Assembly: GCA_947442475.1 (NCBI GenBank)
Contig: CANEVP010000006.1
Location: 1 to 61,674 of the forward strand
Length of the DNA: 61,674 nt
Source of the DNA: Rickettsiales bacterium
GTDB taxonomy: Bacteria; Pseudomonadota; Alphaproteobacteria; Rickettsiales; UBA1997
Direction of reading: 5' to 3'
The translations under genes were made by a program, and so were the position numbers. Under the pieces are notes generated by a model, which saw only the letters and a list, made by a program, of their open reading frames with translations, was not told the DNA's origin and did not search any database. Positions 12,496-58,323 of the stretch are shown one piece after another. Every line of letters begins with the position of its first letter. Position 1 is the first letter of the stretch.

Positions 12496-12519
12496 ATTCC
12501 TGCCGCCGGCGGCAGGAAT
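12496..12519. repeat. 24-bp perfect palindrome (ATT-N7-CCGG-N7'-AAT family), copy 1
   Basis: att cctgccg ccgg cggcagg aat; followed by tcaaaaaa on the minus strand. Confidence 0.85.
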
Positions 12520-12620
12520 GTTGGGAATTTTAAGAATCCTTTAAAATCGCGGGTTGGTGAGGTGTGGTTTGCGAAAAATTAGGTTTTGAAAATCATTTTC
12601 CGATCACTCTTAATCACATT

Positions 12621-12704
12621 CTTAGTCATGCTGAGCCTGTCGAAGCATGATTCTGGGCACCATCGTGCCACGAATCATGCTTCGACAGGCTCAGCATGAC
12701 TAAG
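12621..12704. repeat. REP-like palindromic element with 33-bp perfect arms
   Basis: cttagtcatgctgagcctgtcgaagcatgattc / gaatcatgcttcgacaggctcagcatgactaag with inner ggcac/gtgcc stem. Confidence 0.9.
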
Positions 12705-12725
12705 TAGAAGGTTAGCGAAAAAGAG

Positions 12726-26099: not shown

Positions 26100-27497
26100 T
26101 TGCGCAAAATCATGAAATCAATCTTCAGAACCAAGAGCATTGAAAGCACTTTAGCGAGTGCCAAAAAAAATTCTTTGAAAAAAACTTTAACCGCTTTGGA
26201 TTTAGTTTTGCTGTCAATTGGCTGCATTATTGGTGGCGGGATTTTTGTCTTAACTGGTGTTGCTGCTGCTAAATATGCCGGTCCAGCCATTTCTATTTCT
26301 TACTTTTTTTCTGGGGTTGTTTGTATTTTTGCTGCCTTGGCCTACACCGAGCTTGCTGTGATGATTCCAGTTGCTGGTAGCGCTTATACTTACGCTTACG
26401 TTGTTCTTGGTGAGTTTATAGCATGGCTTGTTGCTTGGGCATTAATTTTGGAATATACTTTAATCTCTTCAACCGTTGCTGCGGGATGGTCTGGCTACTT
26501 TGTTGGAATCTTAAAAACTGCCGGCGTTGCTTTTCCTGAATATCTTGCCAAAGGTCCGTTTGAAGGCGGCTTGATTAATCTTCCGGCTGTCTTCATTTGT
26601 ATTTTTATTGGCTCACTATTGATACGTGGCACGAAAGAAAGTTTGATCATTAATCGCATATTAGTTGCGATCAAACTTGGGGTTATTTTTCTTTTCTTAG
26701 CCTTTGCTGCTCCTCACATTAAAATGGAAAATTATGCTGAATTCATGCCATTTGGCTGGAACGGCGTAATCGTTGGCGCTGCAGCGATTTTCTTCGCCTA
26801 TCTTGGTTTTGACGCTATTGCTACAACTGCTGAAGAATGTAAAAATCCTAATCGTGATTTGCCAATTGGCATTATTGGCGGGCTGCTAATCTGCGCTTTA
26901 CTTTACTTAGTCGTGTCTTTGGTTCTTACCGGCATCGTTCATTACAGTGAACTCAACAATGCCGAGCCGATGGCTTACGCTTTACGAGCTAATGGCAGCA
27001 ATATTGGTTCAGCATTGGTTGCTACCGGAACAGTTGCGGGATTAATGGCGGTACTTCTGGTCTTCATGTATGGCCAATCTCGTATCTTTTTCGTAATGGC
27101 TCGCGATGGCTTGATTCCGCCAGTCTTTAACAAATTGCATAAAAAATTCGGCACTCCTTATTTTGGCTGCCTCTTCGTTGCTTTTGCCACCGCAATAATT
27201 TCTGGATTCACCCCAATTCAAATCATGGGCGATCTTTCTAGTCTTGGAACTTTGTTTGCTTTCGTGATGGTTGCGGTTGCTGTGGTAGTTTTGCGCATCA
27301 AGAGACCTGATTTGGAGAGGCCATTTAGATGTCCGGCAGTATTTGTAGTTGGTCCTTTAGCGGTTTTGAGCTGTGGTTATTTGCTTTATCAACTATTCCT
27401 AAAAACCGGTATTTTCTCACTTCTTTGGTTCACGCTAGGTATCGTAGTTTACTTCGTTTACGCCTACAAAAAAAGCCCTTTGAACAAGGTTAAATAA
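26100..27497 (+). CDS. APC-family amino acid permease (CAT/YfnA-like), paralog 1
   Basis: IGCIIGGGIF, AGPA, YTELA..IPVAGSAY, GFDAI..AEECKNP, RPFRCP. Confidence 0.93.
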   Translation: MRKIMKSIFRTKSIESTLASAKKNSLKKTLTALDLVLLSIGCIIGGGIFVLTGVAAAKYAGPAISISYFFSGVVCIFAALAYTELAVMIPVAGSAYTYAYVVLGEFIAWLVAWALILEYTLISSTVAAGWSGYFVGILKTAGVAFPEYLAKGPFEGGLINLPAVFICIFIGSLLIRGTKESLIINRILVAIKLGVIFLFLAFAAPHIKMENYAEFMPFGWNGVIVGAAAIFFAYLGFDAIATTAEECKNPNRDLPIGIIGGLLICALLYLVVSLVLTGIVHYSELNNAEPMAYALRANGSNIGSALVATGTVAGLMAVLLVFMYGQSRIFFVMARDGLIPPVFNKLHKKFGTPYFGCLFVAFATAIISGFTPIQIMGDLSSLGTLFAFVMVAVAVVVLRIKRPDLERPFRCPAVFVVGPLAVLSCGYLLYQLFLKTGIFSLLWFTLGIVVYFVYAYKKSPLNKVK

Positions 27498-27506
27498 GAT
27501 TACAGC

Positions 27507-28898
27507 ATGCTTGACCTATTTCGTAAAAAAACCATTGAAGATCTCGTCGCCGCTTCTGAAAAAAATTCTTTCAAAAAAACTTTAGGTGCCTTCGACCTAA
27601 TATTGATAGGCATCGGTTGTACAATCGGCACCGGCGTTTTTGTTGTGACTGGCGTTGCCGCTGCAACTTACGCAGGTCCTGCGATTGCTCTTTCTTATCT
27701 TCTAGCCGCAATAGTCTGCGTTTTTGCCGGACTTGCTTACGCTGAACTTGCATCAATGGTGCCGGTTTCTGGTAGTGCCTACACTTACTCTTACGCAGTT
27801 TTGGGTGAATTTGTTGGCTGGCTGGTTGGTTGGGGAATGATTTTGGAATATGGAGTAGGGGCTGCAAGTGTAGCGCTGGGTTGGTCGGGATACATTGTTG
27901 GTATTCTTAAAAATGGCGGAATTAATTTACCTGCCGCATTTTCGCAATCGCCAGAAGATGGCGGAATTGTCAACCTTCCGGCAATTGGCATTACAGTTTT
28001 TATCGGTTTGCTTTTAATCCGCGGCACCAAAGAAAGCGTCACGCTTAACCGCATTTTAGTGGCCACCAAGCTTTCAGTAATTTTTCTATTTCTAATTATT
28101 GCCACACCAATGGTTAAGTTAGAAAATTGGTCAAATTTTGCACCATTTGGCATTAGCGGAATTTTCATCGGAGCCGCGACAGTTTTTTACGCCTACATTG
28201 GCTTTGATGCAGTGGCAACGGCGGCAGAAGAATGTAAAAATCCCAAAAGAGATTTGCCAATCGGCATTATTGCATCAGCAGTAATTTGTGCCATTCTCTA
28301 CATTTCAGTGGCTTTGGTTCTTACGGGAATCTCTCACTACACCACTTTGAACAATCCAGAACCTTTGGCTCGCGCACTGCGTGAAAATGGCAATAATATT
28401 GGTTCAGCTTTGGTGGCTACCGGCGCGCTTGCAGGTATCACATCAGTATTGCTAATTTTGATCTACAGCCAATCGCGAGTTTTCTTCGTAATGTCGAGAG
28501 ACGGGTTAATTCCAAAATCTTTTTCTAAAATTCACAAAAGATTTGGCACACCAAATGTTAGCCTGCTTTTTGTAACTGCGGCAGTTGCAATAGTTTCGGG
28601 CTTTTTTCCTTTAAAAACTTTAAGCCACATTACCAGTTTAGGCACTTTGTTTTCTTTCATGGTGGTGGCTTTTGGTGTTTTGGTTTTGCGCATTAAAGAT
28701 CCAAAGCGTCAAAGAACTTTTAAATGCCCAGCAGTTTACGTAACGGTGCCGTTGGCGATTGCCGGATGCGGTTATTTGGTGTACACTTTGCTGATTGAAA
28801 ATGGCTGGTATTTCGCAATTTGGACATCTCTGGGTCTGGCAGTTTATTTCGGCTACGGCTACAGCAGAAGTGCATTAAATAAATCTCGCAAAATCTGA
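27507..28898 (+). CDS. APC-family amino acid permease, paralog 2
   Basis: Same motifs as the upstream permease; tandem paralog. Confidence 0.93.
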   Translation: MLDLFRKKTIEDLVAASEKNSFKKTLGAFDLILIGIGCTIGTGVFVVTGVAAATYAGPAIALSYLLAAIVCVFAGLAYAELASMVPVSGSAYTYSYAVLGEFVGWLVGWGMILEYGVGAASVALGWSGYIVGILKNGGINLPAAFSQSPEDGGIVNLPAIGITVFIGLLLIRGTKESVTLNRILVATKLSVIFLFLIIATPMVKLENWSNFAPFGISGIFIGAATVFYAYIGFDAVATAAEECKNPKRDLPIGIIASAVICAILYISVALVLTGISHYTTLNNPEPLARALRENGNNIGSALVATGALAGITSVLLILIYSQSRVFFVMSRDGLIPKSFSKIHKRFGTPNVSLLFVTAAVAIVSGFFPLKTLSHITSLGTLFSFMVVAFGVLVLRIKDPKRQRTFKCPAVYVTVPLAIAGCGYLVYTLLIENGWYFAIWTSLGLAVYFGYGYSRSALNKSRKI

Positions 28899-28925
28899 AT
28901 TTTCCGCACCGGTGCGGAAAATTCA
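28896..28925. repeat. Perfect palindrome (30 bp; 24-bp core 28899-28922), family copy 2
   Basis: tga att ttccgca ccgg tgcggaa aat tca followed by an A-run. Confidence 0.9.
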
Positions 28926-28968
28926 AAAAAACCACCCCCAACTCAACAAACACAATGCTTGAGGTCAG

Positions 28969-29979
28969 ATGCAAATTTCGCTAAATAATTACAAAAAACT
29001 GCTTTTAGAAGTTCAAAAAACTCTGCAAAAAACCGAGCAAAATATTGTCAAATCAGTTAACCACGAAAAAATTTTAATGAGTTGGCAGATCGGAAAAATA
29101 ATCAACGATCATTTGCTAGAAAATAGACGCGCCCAGTACGGTAAAAAATTATTCGCGCAACTGTCGCAAGATATTAAAATTGCAGAAAAAACTTTGTACC
29201 AAATGCGCGCCTTCTACAAAACCTACTCGACTCTGCCAAGTGAAGAAGGCAAGTTAACTTGGAGCCACTACCGCAGTTTGGTTTCGGTGAAAGACAGTCA
29301 GAAGCGTCAATATTTAGAAGATTTTACAGTTGAAAACGCACTTGAAGCCAACGAGCTGCAACAAGAAATTGCCAAATTAAAACCGCTTAAAAAAGCGCGC
29401 AAAAAAGCTGCAAAAATTTCTCAGCTCGCTGTGCAGCGCGGGCGTCTTTTTACCTACAAAATCGCGCAAGTTGAAGATTTTTCTGAAACTTTTGTTGATT
29501 GCGGCTTCAACATTTTTACTCAAATAAAAACCAGCTTAAAAGGCGAGGGCTTGGTGGTTGAGTCGCTCAAAGAAAGTGAGGCTTTTTCTTTAAAAAAATC
29601 TGACGCAAAGGCGTCTCAACTTCATACTTACAAAGCTCAACTTAGTCGCGTGGTTGACGGTGACACAATTCACGTTACGCTTGATTTGGGATTTAAAATT
29701 CAACACAAAGAAATTTTGCGCTTGGCCAAAATTAGCGCACCCGAATTAAGCAGCGAGGCTGGTAAAAAAAGCGCCGAAACTCTGAAAAAAATTTTAAAAG
29801 ATGCGCCGCTTCTAATTGTCAAAACCAACAAAACCGACATTTACGGTCGCTACATTGCTGATGTTTTTTTTGGCGACAAAGGTGAAATAGATGCAGAGAA
29901 AGTTGCGAAGGAGGGGGTTTATTTAAACCAAGCCCTGCTTGATGCTAAAGCGGCTAAAGAGTATGTCGCCTCTCATTAA
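28969..29979 (+). CDS. DUF1016 (YhcG) N-terminal domain fused to a staphylococcal-nuclease (SNase) domain
   Basis: WQIGKII..RAQYG..LYQMRAFYKTY..LTWSHYRSL (DUF1016-N); RVVDGDT, LRLAKISAPE, DIYGRYIADV, YLNQALL (SNase). Confidence 0.85.
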   Translation: MQISLNNYKKLLLEVQKTLQKTEQNIVKSVNHEKILMSWQIGKIINDHLLENRRAQYGKKLFAQLSQDIKIAEKTLYQMRAFYKTYSTLPSEEGKLTWSHYRSLVSVKDSQKRQYLEDFTVENALEANELQQEIAKLKPLKKARKKAAKISQLAVQRGRLFTYKIAQVEDFSETFVDCGFNIFTQIKTSLKGEGLVVESLKESEAFSLKKSDAKASQLHTYKAQLSRVVDGDTIHVTLDLGFKIQHKEILRLAKISAPELSSEAGKKSAETLKKILKDAPLLIVKTNKTDIYGRYIADVFFGDKGEIDAEKVAKEGVYLNQALLDAKAAKEYVASH

Positions 29980-30072
29980 TTATTAAAATTTCACAGAAAA
30001 AGAGTAATTCGTTAACCAGATTCGGCTATTGTCTTACAAGGGGATTTCAAAAACCTTTGGGACAACATACGG

Positions 30073-30477
30073 TTGCAAATTGGCGCTATTGGACAAACTT
30101 CTAACGCTACCTCATTAATCAGCGATGGTTTGAGGTTAGTTAAAAATGGCTTTGTAGAAGTTGCTTATCATGGAGTGGGGTCACTTATAAAAACTCCTAT
30201 AGAGTCACTTTGGATCAAGTGTCAAAACAAAAACCTTAGAGATGTAACAATAACAACTGGATCTGAGGCGACAAATAACGATGGTCATGATTATAGTAAT
30301 CTCTCTGATGCTGACGCCACTATAAACCTTGCCACTACTGCTCCAGAAGGTCAGACTGTCCGAGGTGGAGATCGGACTAATAGCGAAACAACGCAATTAG
30401 GAATCATCGAGATCCCAACTGCAACAGCTCTCACATCTGCTACCCTGACACGCGGCGGATCGAGTGGGAGATTTTAA
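30073..30477 (+). CDS. Hypothetical protein, possibly a 5'-truncated remnant of an orphan gene
   Basis: TTG start; frame stays open a short way upstream with no ATG; Thr-rich with GGSSGRF tail. Confidence 0.45.
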   Translation: MQIGAIGQTSNATSLISDGLRLVKNGFVEVAYHGVGSLIKTPIESLWIKCQNKNLRDVTITTGSEATNNDGHDYSNLSDADATINLATTAPEGQTVRGGDRTNSETTQLGIIEIPTATALTSATLTRGGSSGRF

Positions 30478-30522
30478 AAATTGGTACATTGCCGCTTAAA
30501 CCCAAAAAGATCTCTCGCTTGT

Positions 30523-30957
30523 TCAAGCTTGCTCTGCCGCGTTTCTAGCCAAAATATCGGCAATCTCATTAAACTTATTGCCGCTGTGTCCCTTAACCCA
30601 AATCCATTTTATTTGGTGTTTTGCCACTTCCGCATCTAACTCTTGCCACAAATCAACATTCTTCACCGGTTTTTTATCAGAGCCTTTCCAGCCATTTTTT
30701 TTCCAGTTGAAAATCCATTTTGTGATCCCATCCATTACATATTTGCTGTCGGTGTAAAGGGTGACTTGCGACAATTTTTTTAGCGTCTTAAGGCTTTCAA
30801 TTACGGCGCGCATTTCCATGCGGTTATTGGTGCTTAATTTTTCGCCGCCTGAAATTTCTTTGCGATGCTCCTTGTAAAGCAAAATAGCGCCCCAGCCGCC
30901 GCGTCCAGGGTTTCCTAAACAAGCGCCGTCTGTGTAGATTTCAATTGATGAGGTCAT
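30523..30957 (-). CDS. rnhA: Ribonuclease HI
   Basis: [36 protein letters not shown]. Confidence 0.97.
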
Positions 30958-58299: not shown

Positions 58300-58323
58300 A
58301 TTTTCCGCACCGGTGCGGAAAAT
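58300..58323. repeat. 24-bp perfect palindrome, family copy 3
   Basis: att ttccgca ccgg tgcggaa aat followed by tcgaaaaaa; core identical to 28899-28922. Confidence 0.9.

Follow-up and report, generated by a model that had tools for sequence, protein, structure and literature searches.

Having analysed a 61,674-nucleotide stretch of DNA from a freshwater Rickettsiales-like bacterium (contig C6 of its genome; at its full length called the window), we find that a gene joining a DUF1016_N domain to a staphylococcal nuclease (SNase) domain is one of nine copies in that genome, that each copy is preceded by a palindrome with a core of its own, and that most of these cores also recur by themselves, nearly always between genes (henceforth solo sites). 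Each paralogue probably acts as a dimer that binds DNA site-specifically and carries a tethered nuclease; it would read its own palindrome and occupy the solo sites as well. The set of genes and palindromes looks like a previously undescribed protein-and-site address system. The genome (G000) is a metagenome-assembled genome (MAG) of 1.68 Mb in 64 contigs, with 40% GC and a completeness of 94.4%; all genomes compared are likewise MAGs (G032 being 84% complete), and the open reading frames (ORFs) of G000 are longest-ORF calls made for the present analysis. Several of the counts given below were taken by eye from listed rows, and the related sequences that enter them are not independent of one another. 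The features of the gene and its upstream region are as follows:

28896-28925, no strand: gene-proximal, presumed cognate palindrome, perfect over 30 bp (15+15), 100% complementary, without a spacer.
28926-28968, plus strand: leader between the palindrome and the ATG, 43 nt, with a GAGG ribosome-binding motif at 28961-28964.
28969-29979, plus strand: SNase-fusion gene, 336 residues (ORF call, Pfam, AF2 model).
28969-29388, plus strand: N-terminal domain (residues 1-140), the proposed palindrome reader; seven helices, pLDDT 90.3 when modelled alone.
29185-29223, plus strand: predicted helix-turn-helix (HTH) recognition helix (residues 73-85), from the model and from covariation at residues 73, 74 and 78.
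29614-29976, plus strand: SNase domain with a thermonuclease-like OB-fold (residues 216-336), from profile, structure match and motif alignment.

The initial annotation had read the protein as a DUF1016_N domain joined to an SNase domain rather than to the usual PD-(D/E)XK nuclease domain, and this architecture is confirmed. Pfam assigns residues 14-135 to DUF1016_N (PF17761; E 1e-22, scoring 81 bits where the cut-off is 32.8) and residues 250-317 to SNase (E 5.8e-5, 23.9 bits where 21 are required), with no match in the window protein to the PD-(D/E)XK nuclease domain (PF06250). The AF2 model of the whole protein (pLDDT 87.7) consists of a helical domain (8-137), a disordered linker (140-148), a small beta domain (162-210) and the SNase-like OB-fold, the last of which Foldseek superimposes on thermonuclease with E 3e-6, a TM score of 0.68 on the target and a root-mean-square deviation of 2.2-2.5 A over ~120 residues. 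A profile built from 48 family members matched thermonuclease chains in the PDB at E 1e-5, and the DGDT motif, Arg35, Glu43 and Arg87 of thermonuclease align with equivalents in that profile. The catalytic set Asp21/Arg35/Glu43/Arg87 is conserved, with D230, D232, R251 and R294 invariant in the 48 sequences and E259 conserved in at least 90% of them. The protein is thus like staphylococcal nuclease in its fold and in these residues, but it is intracellular and fused to a putative DNA-binding domain, and in its clade the Asp40 ligand is replaced. With YhcG/DUF1016 proteins (PF17761 plus PF06250) it has in common a homologous N domain with a nuclease domain behind it, as a one-gene unit of ~340 residues, the difference being an SNase OB-fold in place of PD-(D/E)XK; an excerpt of PMC4316617 places the YhcG family in the PD-(D/E)XK superfamily and describes it as found on mobile elements.

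The perfect 30-bp palindrome close before the gene likewise stood up, with the gap to the ATG now set at 43 nt. Its centre lies 58 nt before the ATG, which is the modal distance in the family, and it is built of conserved outer arms around a variable inner core, with T-rich sequence 5' of the core and A-rich sequence 3' of it. The TGA stop codon of the preceding permease ORF (27507-28898) forms the first three bases of the palindrome, and the 3' part of the leader resembles that of the paralogues C5:30242, C11, C4 and C21. The terminator scan found no terminator-like site at 28896-28925, and Rfam matched one tRNA in the window and nothing at the palindrome. A reading of the palindrome arms as -35/-10 elements was dropped, since the promoter scan gave it no support. 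Three further suggestions of the initial annotation concerned palindromes within the coding sequence: a vestige at 29230-29254, a tendency of DUF1016 genes to carry an internal palindrome just before the W(S/T)HY codons, and a reading of the free palindrome in frame as IFRTGAEN. In 52 family genes the longest stem found within the 48 nt that precede the W(S/T)HY codons is 4.0 bp on average, compared with 4.4 bp in 870 control windows from these genes, so that the vestige is a chance match and the link to an internal palindrome finds no support; nor does the in-frame reading, as the palindrome is intergenic in all copies. In an RNA library (X18), two 151-nt contigs fall within the window gene (29228-29375 and 29387-29534), which is no proof of transcription and defines no start site.

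The association of gene and palindrome extends to every copy in the genome. A tblastn search of G000 revealed eight intact paralogues and one broken one, 48-63% identical to the window protein, and a search with PF17761 returned those nine only, all over the cut-off. All nine have a palindrome of 22-30 bp located 14-55 bp upstream of the start, every core being different, and five of the nine genes sit in convergent intergenic regions. We widened the comparison with 60 related loci from freshwater MAGs labelled Rickettsiales or Alphaproteobacteria (at most nine per MAG), and as a control scanned the 110 nt upstream of each of 1440 other ORFs. A perfect upstream palindrome with arms of at least 11 is present at 46/63 family loci (own and relatives), while one with arms of at least 10 precedes only 9/1440 of the other ORFs. 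Homologues of the genus are thus enriched for palindromes upstream of the gene, as had been anticipated, although not before the W(S/T)HY codons, where the expectation failed. The initial proposal of a nuclease with a cognate DNA element is therefore strongly supported, by the nine paralogues, by the family loci and by the solo copies that match resident genes, and it holds more widely than first proposed.

The geometry of the site was taken from the pooled own and related loci whose palindrome has arms of at least 10 with at most one mismatch (57 loci, the nine of G000 included). The centre of the palindrome lies 57-58 nt before the start codon in 34 of these, 44-47 nt in 14 and 31-36 nt in six. 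There is no spacer in 44 of the 57 and one central base in nine; because complementarity runs through the centre, where a loop would have to sit, the site is more readily understood as read in duplex form than as a hairpin. The outer arms are conserved, whereas the inner cores (12, 13 or 14 nt long) are hypervariable, and core length tracks the protein clade.

The N domain, the proposed reader of these sites, looks like a DNA-binding reader of the ParB/Noc/KorB type in the structure model. Its best fold matches are the DNA-binding domains of ParB, Spo0J, Noc, KorB and SopB: the top 10 Foldseek matches are all ParB/Noc/Spo0J (E 0.04-0.1), and VIA-align gives Z scores of 9.5 for the ParB DNA-binding domain on parS (6s6h), 8.9 for Spo0J and 6.9 for KorB on its operator. 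Profile matches are weak (Pfam HTH_ParB at E 0.022, below the cut-off, and NCBIfam Noc), and Pfam gave no match at E <=1 to an N-terminal ParB/Srx CTP-binding domain, the helical domain beginning at residue 8. As excerpted in PMC7383237, ParB domains bind palindromic parS with two-fold symmetry through the HTH recognition helix alpha4 together with alpha6 and alpha8, and four residues determine their specificity. ParB, Noc and KorB sit as symmetric dimers on perfect 14-16-bp palindromes, with few residues setting specificity and with sites dispersed round the replicon, and the Noc-binding site (NBS, TATTTCCC-GGGAAATA) resembles the outer part of the family palindromes (the same excerpt of PMC7383237). 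The present family, whose N domain has these proteins as its best structural matches, is alike in having perfect palindromes dispersed in the genome, but differs in lacking a ParB/CTPase domain, in its fused nuclease, in sites of 22-26 bp and in the number of paralogues, of which a genome may have up to 14 with a private, fast-changing site for every one.

Covariation between protein and site points to the predicted recognition helix. Across 46 loci, with all 336 positions considered, the three residues that share most mutual information with the site (74, 78 and 73) open the predicted helix 73-85. Arg74 is associated with G at core base 1 (G in 18/22 loci with Arg, and Arg at 18/19 sites with G), Lys78 with G at core base 2 (Lys at 7/7 sites with G), and Lys or Arg at residue 73 with G at arm position 4 (13/20). 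On a tree built without these columns, the covarying traits changed 3-11 times.

Two solo sites lie in the window itself:

58300-58323, no strand: solo copy of the window-gene core, perfect over 24 bp, intergenic, 57 nt upstream of a 194-residue ORF.
12496-12519, no strand: solo palindrome, perfect over 24 bp, identical to the one upstream of the paralogue C23:22506, with a shared tail of ~95 nt.

The initial annotation had taken both for members of the window palindrome's own family. This holds for the site at 58300, which shares the core (two mismatches over 28 nt against the window palindrome; no match in 100 shuffles), but only in part for that at 12496, which shares the outer build while its core differs and is cognate to another paralogue. 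Genome-wide, 7/9 gene cores recur in G000 in 1-4 copies each at up to two mismatches, and there are ~32 solos in total, nearly all intergenic. Solos in the genomes G029 and G001 also match gene-adjacent cores of those genomes. Within a subfamily the palindromes are 98-100% identical, compared with 32-72% for the 40 nt on the tail side and 29-52% for the 30 nt on the other side, and thus it is the palindrome itself that is kept. We conclude that the solo sites appear to be maintained because something, most simply the cognate protein, needs perfect sites. About 18 elements carry a conserved tail, which corresponds to the leader up to the ATG in class-A genes and always adjoins the palindrome; a search for this tail at a limit of five mismatches gave 47 matches in the real genome and 1.0 in shuffled genomes. 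Of the 30 solos in intergenic regions, 14 have convergent genes on their two sides, compared with 197/1400 (14%) in the background, and one lies in a divergent region, which argues against solos being operators of neighbouring promoters. One solo, C25:23256, occupies a position at which a relative carries the gene. Contigs from public runs often stop at or just past the window palindrome (record 3 of X2 ends at 28930, and records of X3 begin at 28899 and 28919); contig ends at this place (28899-28931) indicate that the repeat breaks short-read assemblies, and solo counts from MAGs are therefore probably underestimates.

Orthologous solo sites keep their place and flanks while their perfect cores turn over among close relatives. 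The site orthologous to window 12496 holds a different perfect palindrome in each of the genomes G000, G035 and G032, with 92-100% identity in the sequence on either side: G000 and G035 are set apart by two mirrored changes per arm, and in G032 the core is another one altogether, its arms of 10 nt enclosing a 3-base centre. The G035 palindrome at this site is identical to one that precedes a G032 gene. The place orthologous to window 58300 is taken in G029 by a near-perfect palindrome that differs in its core, and in G035 by a degenerate one.

The genes themselves show a related pattern. Seven of the nine G000 copies are at positions common to other species, where the flanking genes have 90-97% protein identity and the nucleases 53-96%. 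In these syntenic pairs, cores are identical or almost so where the N domains share at least 94% identity, and different where they share 59-90%; in the different-core pairs the amino-acid differences cluster in the N domain (residues 9, 21-25, 50, 53, 63, 70, 72, 75, 109-110 and 128-132). The ratio of nonsynonymous to synonymous substitution rates (dN/dS) is 0.06-0.31 throughout the gene. In most different-core pairs the N domain has a higher dS than the remainder of the gene, in same-core pairs a lower one. Together, the dS pattern and the low dN/dS point to exchange of the palindrome and N domain as one module rather than to fast point evolution.

The window copy is a presence/absence polymorphism at a conserved locus, bounded as follows:

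28884-30532, no strand: indel segment absent from the two closest genomes, 1.65 kb, comprising the palindrome, the gene and 550 bp of unique DNA.

In these genomes (G032 and G035) the flanks are 90-93% identical to those of G000, the permease stop codon lies only 18 nt from the rnhA end, and the empty alleles contain no palindrome. Public-run DNA contigs are fragmentary, and none bridged an empty allele. Around the gene we found neither a conserved 3' end nor a terminal inverted repeat nor a target duplication.

Within the order, the gene is present in 22/36 other genomes of the genus (1-14 matches) and in 0/24 genomes of the order's other families. A higher abundance of the motif in gene-bearing genomes, which the initial annotation had led one to expect, is borne out in one respect and not in another. 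The loose pattern AATTTT-N12-13-AAAATT is equally common in gene-free and gene-bearing genomes of the genus, but perfect palindromes occurred only in the gene-bearing genomes inspected: among the loose matches listed, none was perfect in the gene-free genomes G002 (0/6), G026 (0/6), G016 (0/49) and G019 (0/26), compared with 17/49 in G029 and 9/26 in G001, the genomes that were read by eye. The perfect palindromes of G029 and G001 include cores that are present 2-5 times and adjoin genes. Some members of the genus also carry a canonical gene of the YhcG type, which scores far higher against PF17761 (130-167 bits, compared with 57-96 for the SNase-fusion genes) and thus attests to two coexisting DUF1016_N lineages in the genus; none of six such genes has an upstream palindrome. 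One of them, at L167 (G026:C5:61900-63500), along with five similar loci, encodes DUF1016_N with a PD-(D/E)XK-like C-terminus in 342 residues.

Beyond the genus, a metagenome profile search revealed 809 clusters at 50% identity with the full-length architecture (E <=1e-30), and the fusion is also found in Omnitrophota, Planctomycetota, Latescibacterota, Leptospiraceae and others. In this wider family the SNase motif is mostly canonical with Asp, (I/L)-D-x-P-E. At 39 distant loci with 77 neighbouring genes, ~8 neighbours are mobile- or defence-like, the others matched by Pfam are mainly housekeeping genes and about one third have no match. Our literature searches found no paper linking DUF1016/YhcG with SNase or with palindromes.

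How such a system would work can be outlined from these observations. Two DUF1016_N domains would each read one half of a perfect 22-26-bp palindrome in its double-stranded form, with conserved residues contacting the outer arms and the variable residues 73, 74 and 78, at the start of the recognition helix, the first core bases. The private palindrome stands at a fixed distance before the start codon, often right behind the stop codon of the preceding gene, and binding there would most likely block read-through or promoter activity, such that the gene represses itself; autoregulation of this kind by the paralogues is plausible. The same protein would also occupy 1-4 solo copies, mainly at the 3' ends of genes, and the SNase domain on its flexible linker would act locally on DNA or on nascent RNA. 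Palindrome and N domain would be inherited and exchanged together as one module. It is possible, though we hold it only tentatively, that the proteins serve a genome-wide address system, in which up to 14 paralogues of ParB fold and SNase stand as roadblocks at private palindromes, cutting nascent RNA or nicking DNA. The addresses would then have fixed chromosomal positions, most of them at the 3' ends of genes and at the 5' ends of the reader genes themselves, and cores would be rewritten wholesale, the whole core being replaced while position, arms and tail stay, so that readers and addresses would co-diversify between strains.

Several observations weigh against the reading of each paralogue as a nuclease bound at its own palindrome and at the solos, or limit how far it can be taken. 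The fold scores of the N domain are moderate for a helical domain, and Z values below ~13 may reflect a common helical-bundle arrangement. The independent-pairs tests of the covariation are not significant, although the direction is never opposite: there are four pairs for R74/G (median p 0.25), six for residue 73 (p 0.125) and two for K78 (p 0.5), and with so few independent pairs shared ancestry inflates the raw covariation tables. About 11-13 of the ~32 G000 solos have no intact resident gene of the same core, and the G032 solo core at the 12496 site has no match in four G032 gene-upstream regions. The scan for sigma-70-like promoters found three sites in the window against 3.0 expected, none of them at the palindrome or in the leader. 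Strong upstream palindromes accompany only ~5/65 family members in other phyla, making the palindrome link a property of the genus clade and not of the architecture. Finally, the equivalent of Asp40, a Ca2+ ligand, is Asn in 51/60 members of the genus clade, Gly, Ala or Ser in eight and Asp in one (Ser in the window copy), and the activity of SNase in this clade may therefore be weakened or altered.

These points leave room for other explanations, none of which we consider likely. That the gene is a defence nuclease of the DUF1016/PDC-S02 type with an ordinary autoregulatory operator, its solos being inert relics of lost copies, is unlikely. The distribution is patchy and copy number variable, a solo does stand at a relative's gene position (C25:23256), some solo tails look like the gene leader as far as its start codon, and 31 PADLOC PDC-S02 models match with E down to 1.6e-26; those matches, however, cover the N domain only (residues ~4-187), and the neighbours of the distant loci lend no contextual support. 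Relics would moreover decay, yet the solo palindromes stay nearly identical amid diverged flanks and cores remain perfectly symmetric on changing, and a private 24-bp address in the host's own genome would be an odd sensor of phage DNA. Quite unlikely as well is a nuclease of the homing or strain-competition type, cutting the palindrome in genomes or alleles without the gene and spreading by repair, with core turnover as an arms race. Type I HsdS subunits and homing endonucleases are known for exchange of specificity modules and for presence/absence polymorphism at a conserved locus, and the present family is alike in having a recognition module with a separate history and a locus that is present or absent. 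The empty alleles with flanks of 93% identity, the lone insertion between housekeeping genes in many phyla, the modular exchange of the specificity part and the patchy occurrence would all suit such a nuclease, and short-patch repair from another element could account for the replacement of whole cores at fixed solo sites. But the family differs in having no methyltransferase partner and in keeping its site intact beside every gene, perfect solos persisting where cut sites should be lost or protected, and escape from cleavage would not preserve perfect two-fold symmetry. Nor does the insertion interrupt a recognition site, the empty alleles of G032 and G035 being without a palindrome; there is no homology on the 3' side to template homing, dN/dS is low throughout, and Pfam found no known homing-endonuclease motif in the window protein.

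Dispersal of the palindromes by the nuclease had been part of the initial annotation, which pointed to the repetitive extragenic palindromes (REP) and their associated tyrosine transposases (RAYT). In REP/RAYT systems the gene adjoins the repeat family that it presumably recognises, paralogues pair with repeat variants, and the palindromes are intergenic at gene ends; REP elements and miniature inverted-repeat transposable elements (MITEs) are placed between convergent genes, as are many of our solos. A selfish system of this kind, in which the nuclease nicks or cuts the palindrome and copies it with its tail to new intergenic sites, is nevertheless improbable. Each gene does lie next to its own dispersed palindrome variant, with copies in intergenic regions, convergent placement and a tail common to ~18 solos and the class-A leaders, and gene copy number ranges from 0 to 14 within one genus. 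However, the family has no Y1/HUH domain (PF01797 gave no match in G000, while control genomes were matched), its palindromes are perfect and loopless in 1-5 copies per core, and the palindrome stands on one side of the gene only, with no terminal repeat or conserved 3' end. The positions of 7/9 gene copies are common to other species, and solo positions are conserved among species while cores change, unlike fresh insertions. Conserved positions, the absence of terminal repeats and of a Y1 transposase thus make active dispersal or nicking a poor fit. Least probable by far, to the point that we give it little weight, is that the palindromes are RNA or DNA hairpins (terminators or stabilisers of mRNA) unrelated to the protein, adjacency being a by-product of tolerated places. 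Solos are enriched at gene 3' ends, and two long versions (C1:27164 and C2:44448) have A-run and T-run flanks like bidirectional terminators; but complementarity through the centre leaves no loop in 44/57, the usual order of T-run, stem and A-run is the reverse of a terminator, and the terminator scan and Rfam are blank at the window palindrome. Hairpins would also not account for the fixed spacing between palindrome and family start codon, for the absence of palindromes from the five gene-lacking genomes inspected or for the covariation of protein residues with site bases.

The two long versions, at C1:27164-27203 and C2:44448-44485, are family palindromes extended to 38-40 bp of perfect symmetry by A-run/GCC and GGC/T-run flanks, and they look like bidirectional intrinsic terminators built round a family site. 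At L086 (G032:C170:5400-7400), ~1 kb on either side of a copy of the window-palindrome core are mutual reverse complements, a fold-back that the palindrome may have seeded during assembly, unless the inverted duplication is real. A palindromic MITE-like element of ~85 nt (window 12620-12705) is found ~100 nt away from the 12496 solo; it is matched in both orientations, and G032 and G035 between them have no fewer than 15 different copies. Long inverted repeats of a similar kind stand on either side of the broken C13 paralogue. Near the start of the window, at 60-105, there is a perfect 46-bp palindrome (23+23, no spacer) whose sequence is unrelated to the family and which is identical at C31:24-69; both copies are near contig ends and may thus represent an assembly-breaking repeat.

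Around the window gene, the ORFs at 26100-27497 and 27507-28898 encode tandem amino-acid permease paralogues of 465 and 463 residues, and because of the adjacent 1.65-kb indel the second ends in other codons at its C-terminus than its counterparts in G032 and G035. The 550 bp at 29980-30532 have no blastn or tblastx match elsewhere in G000 and contain a 134-residue ORF with a TTG start (30073-30477); being present only with the nuclease gene, this stretch may be co-transferred cargo or a decayed gene.

The fusion family is large and unstudied, with members in many phyla. If binding is confirmed, the genus would offer dozens of closely related natural DNA readers whose 22-26-bp targets are legible beside each gene, and, as a simple residue-to-base pattern is already visible, a ready model for the evolution of DNA specificity. 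Confirmation would also give the widespread DUF1016_N domain its first function, as a ParB-like DNA-binding domain, and it would raise a new question: why a 1.7-Mb genome keeps up to 14 site-directed nucleases along with perfectly symmetric, positionally conserved sites whose cores are exchanged wholesale among close relatives.

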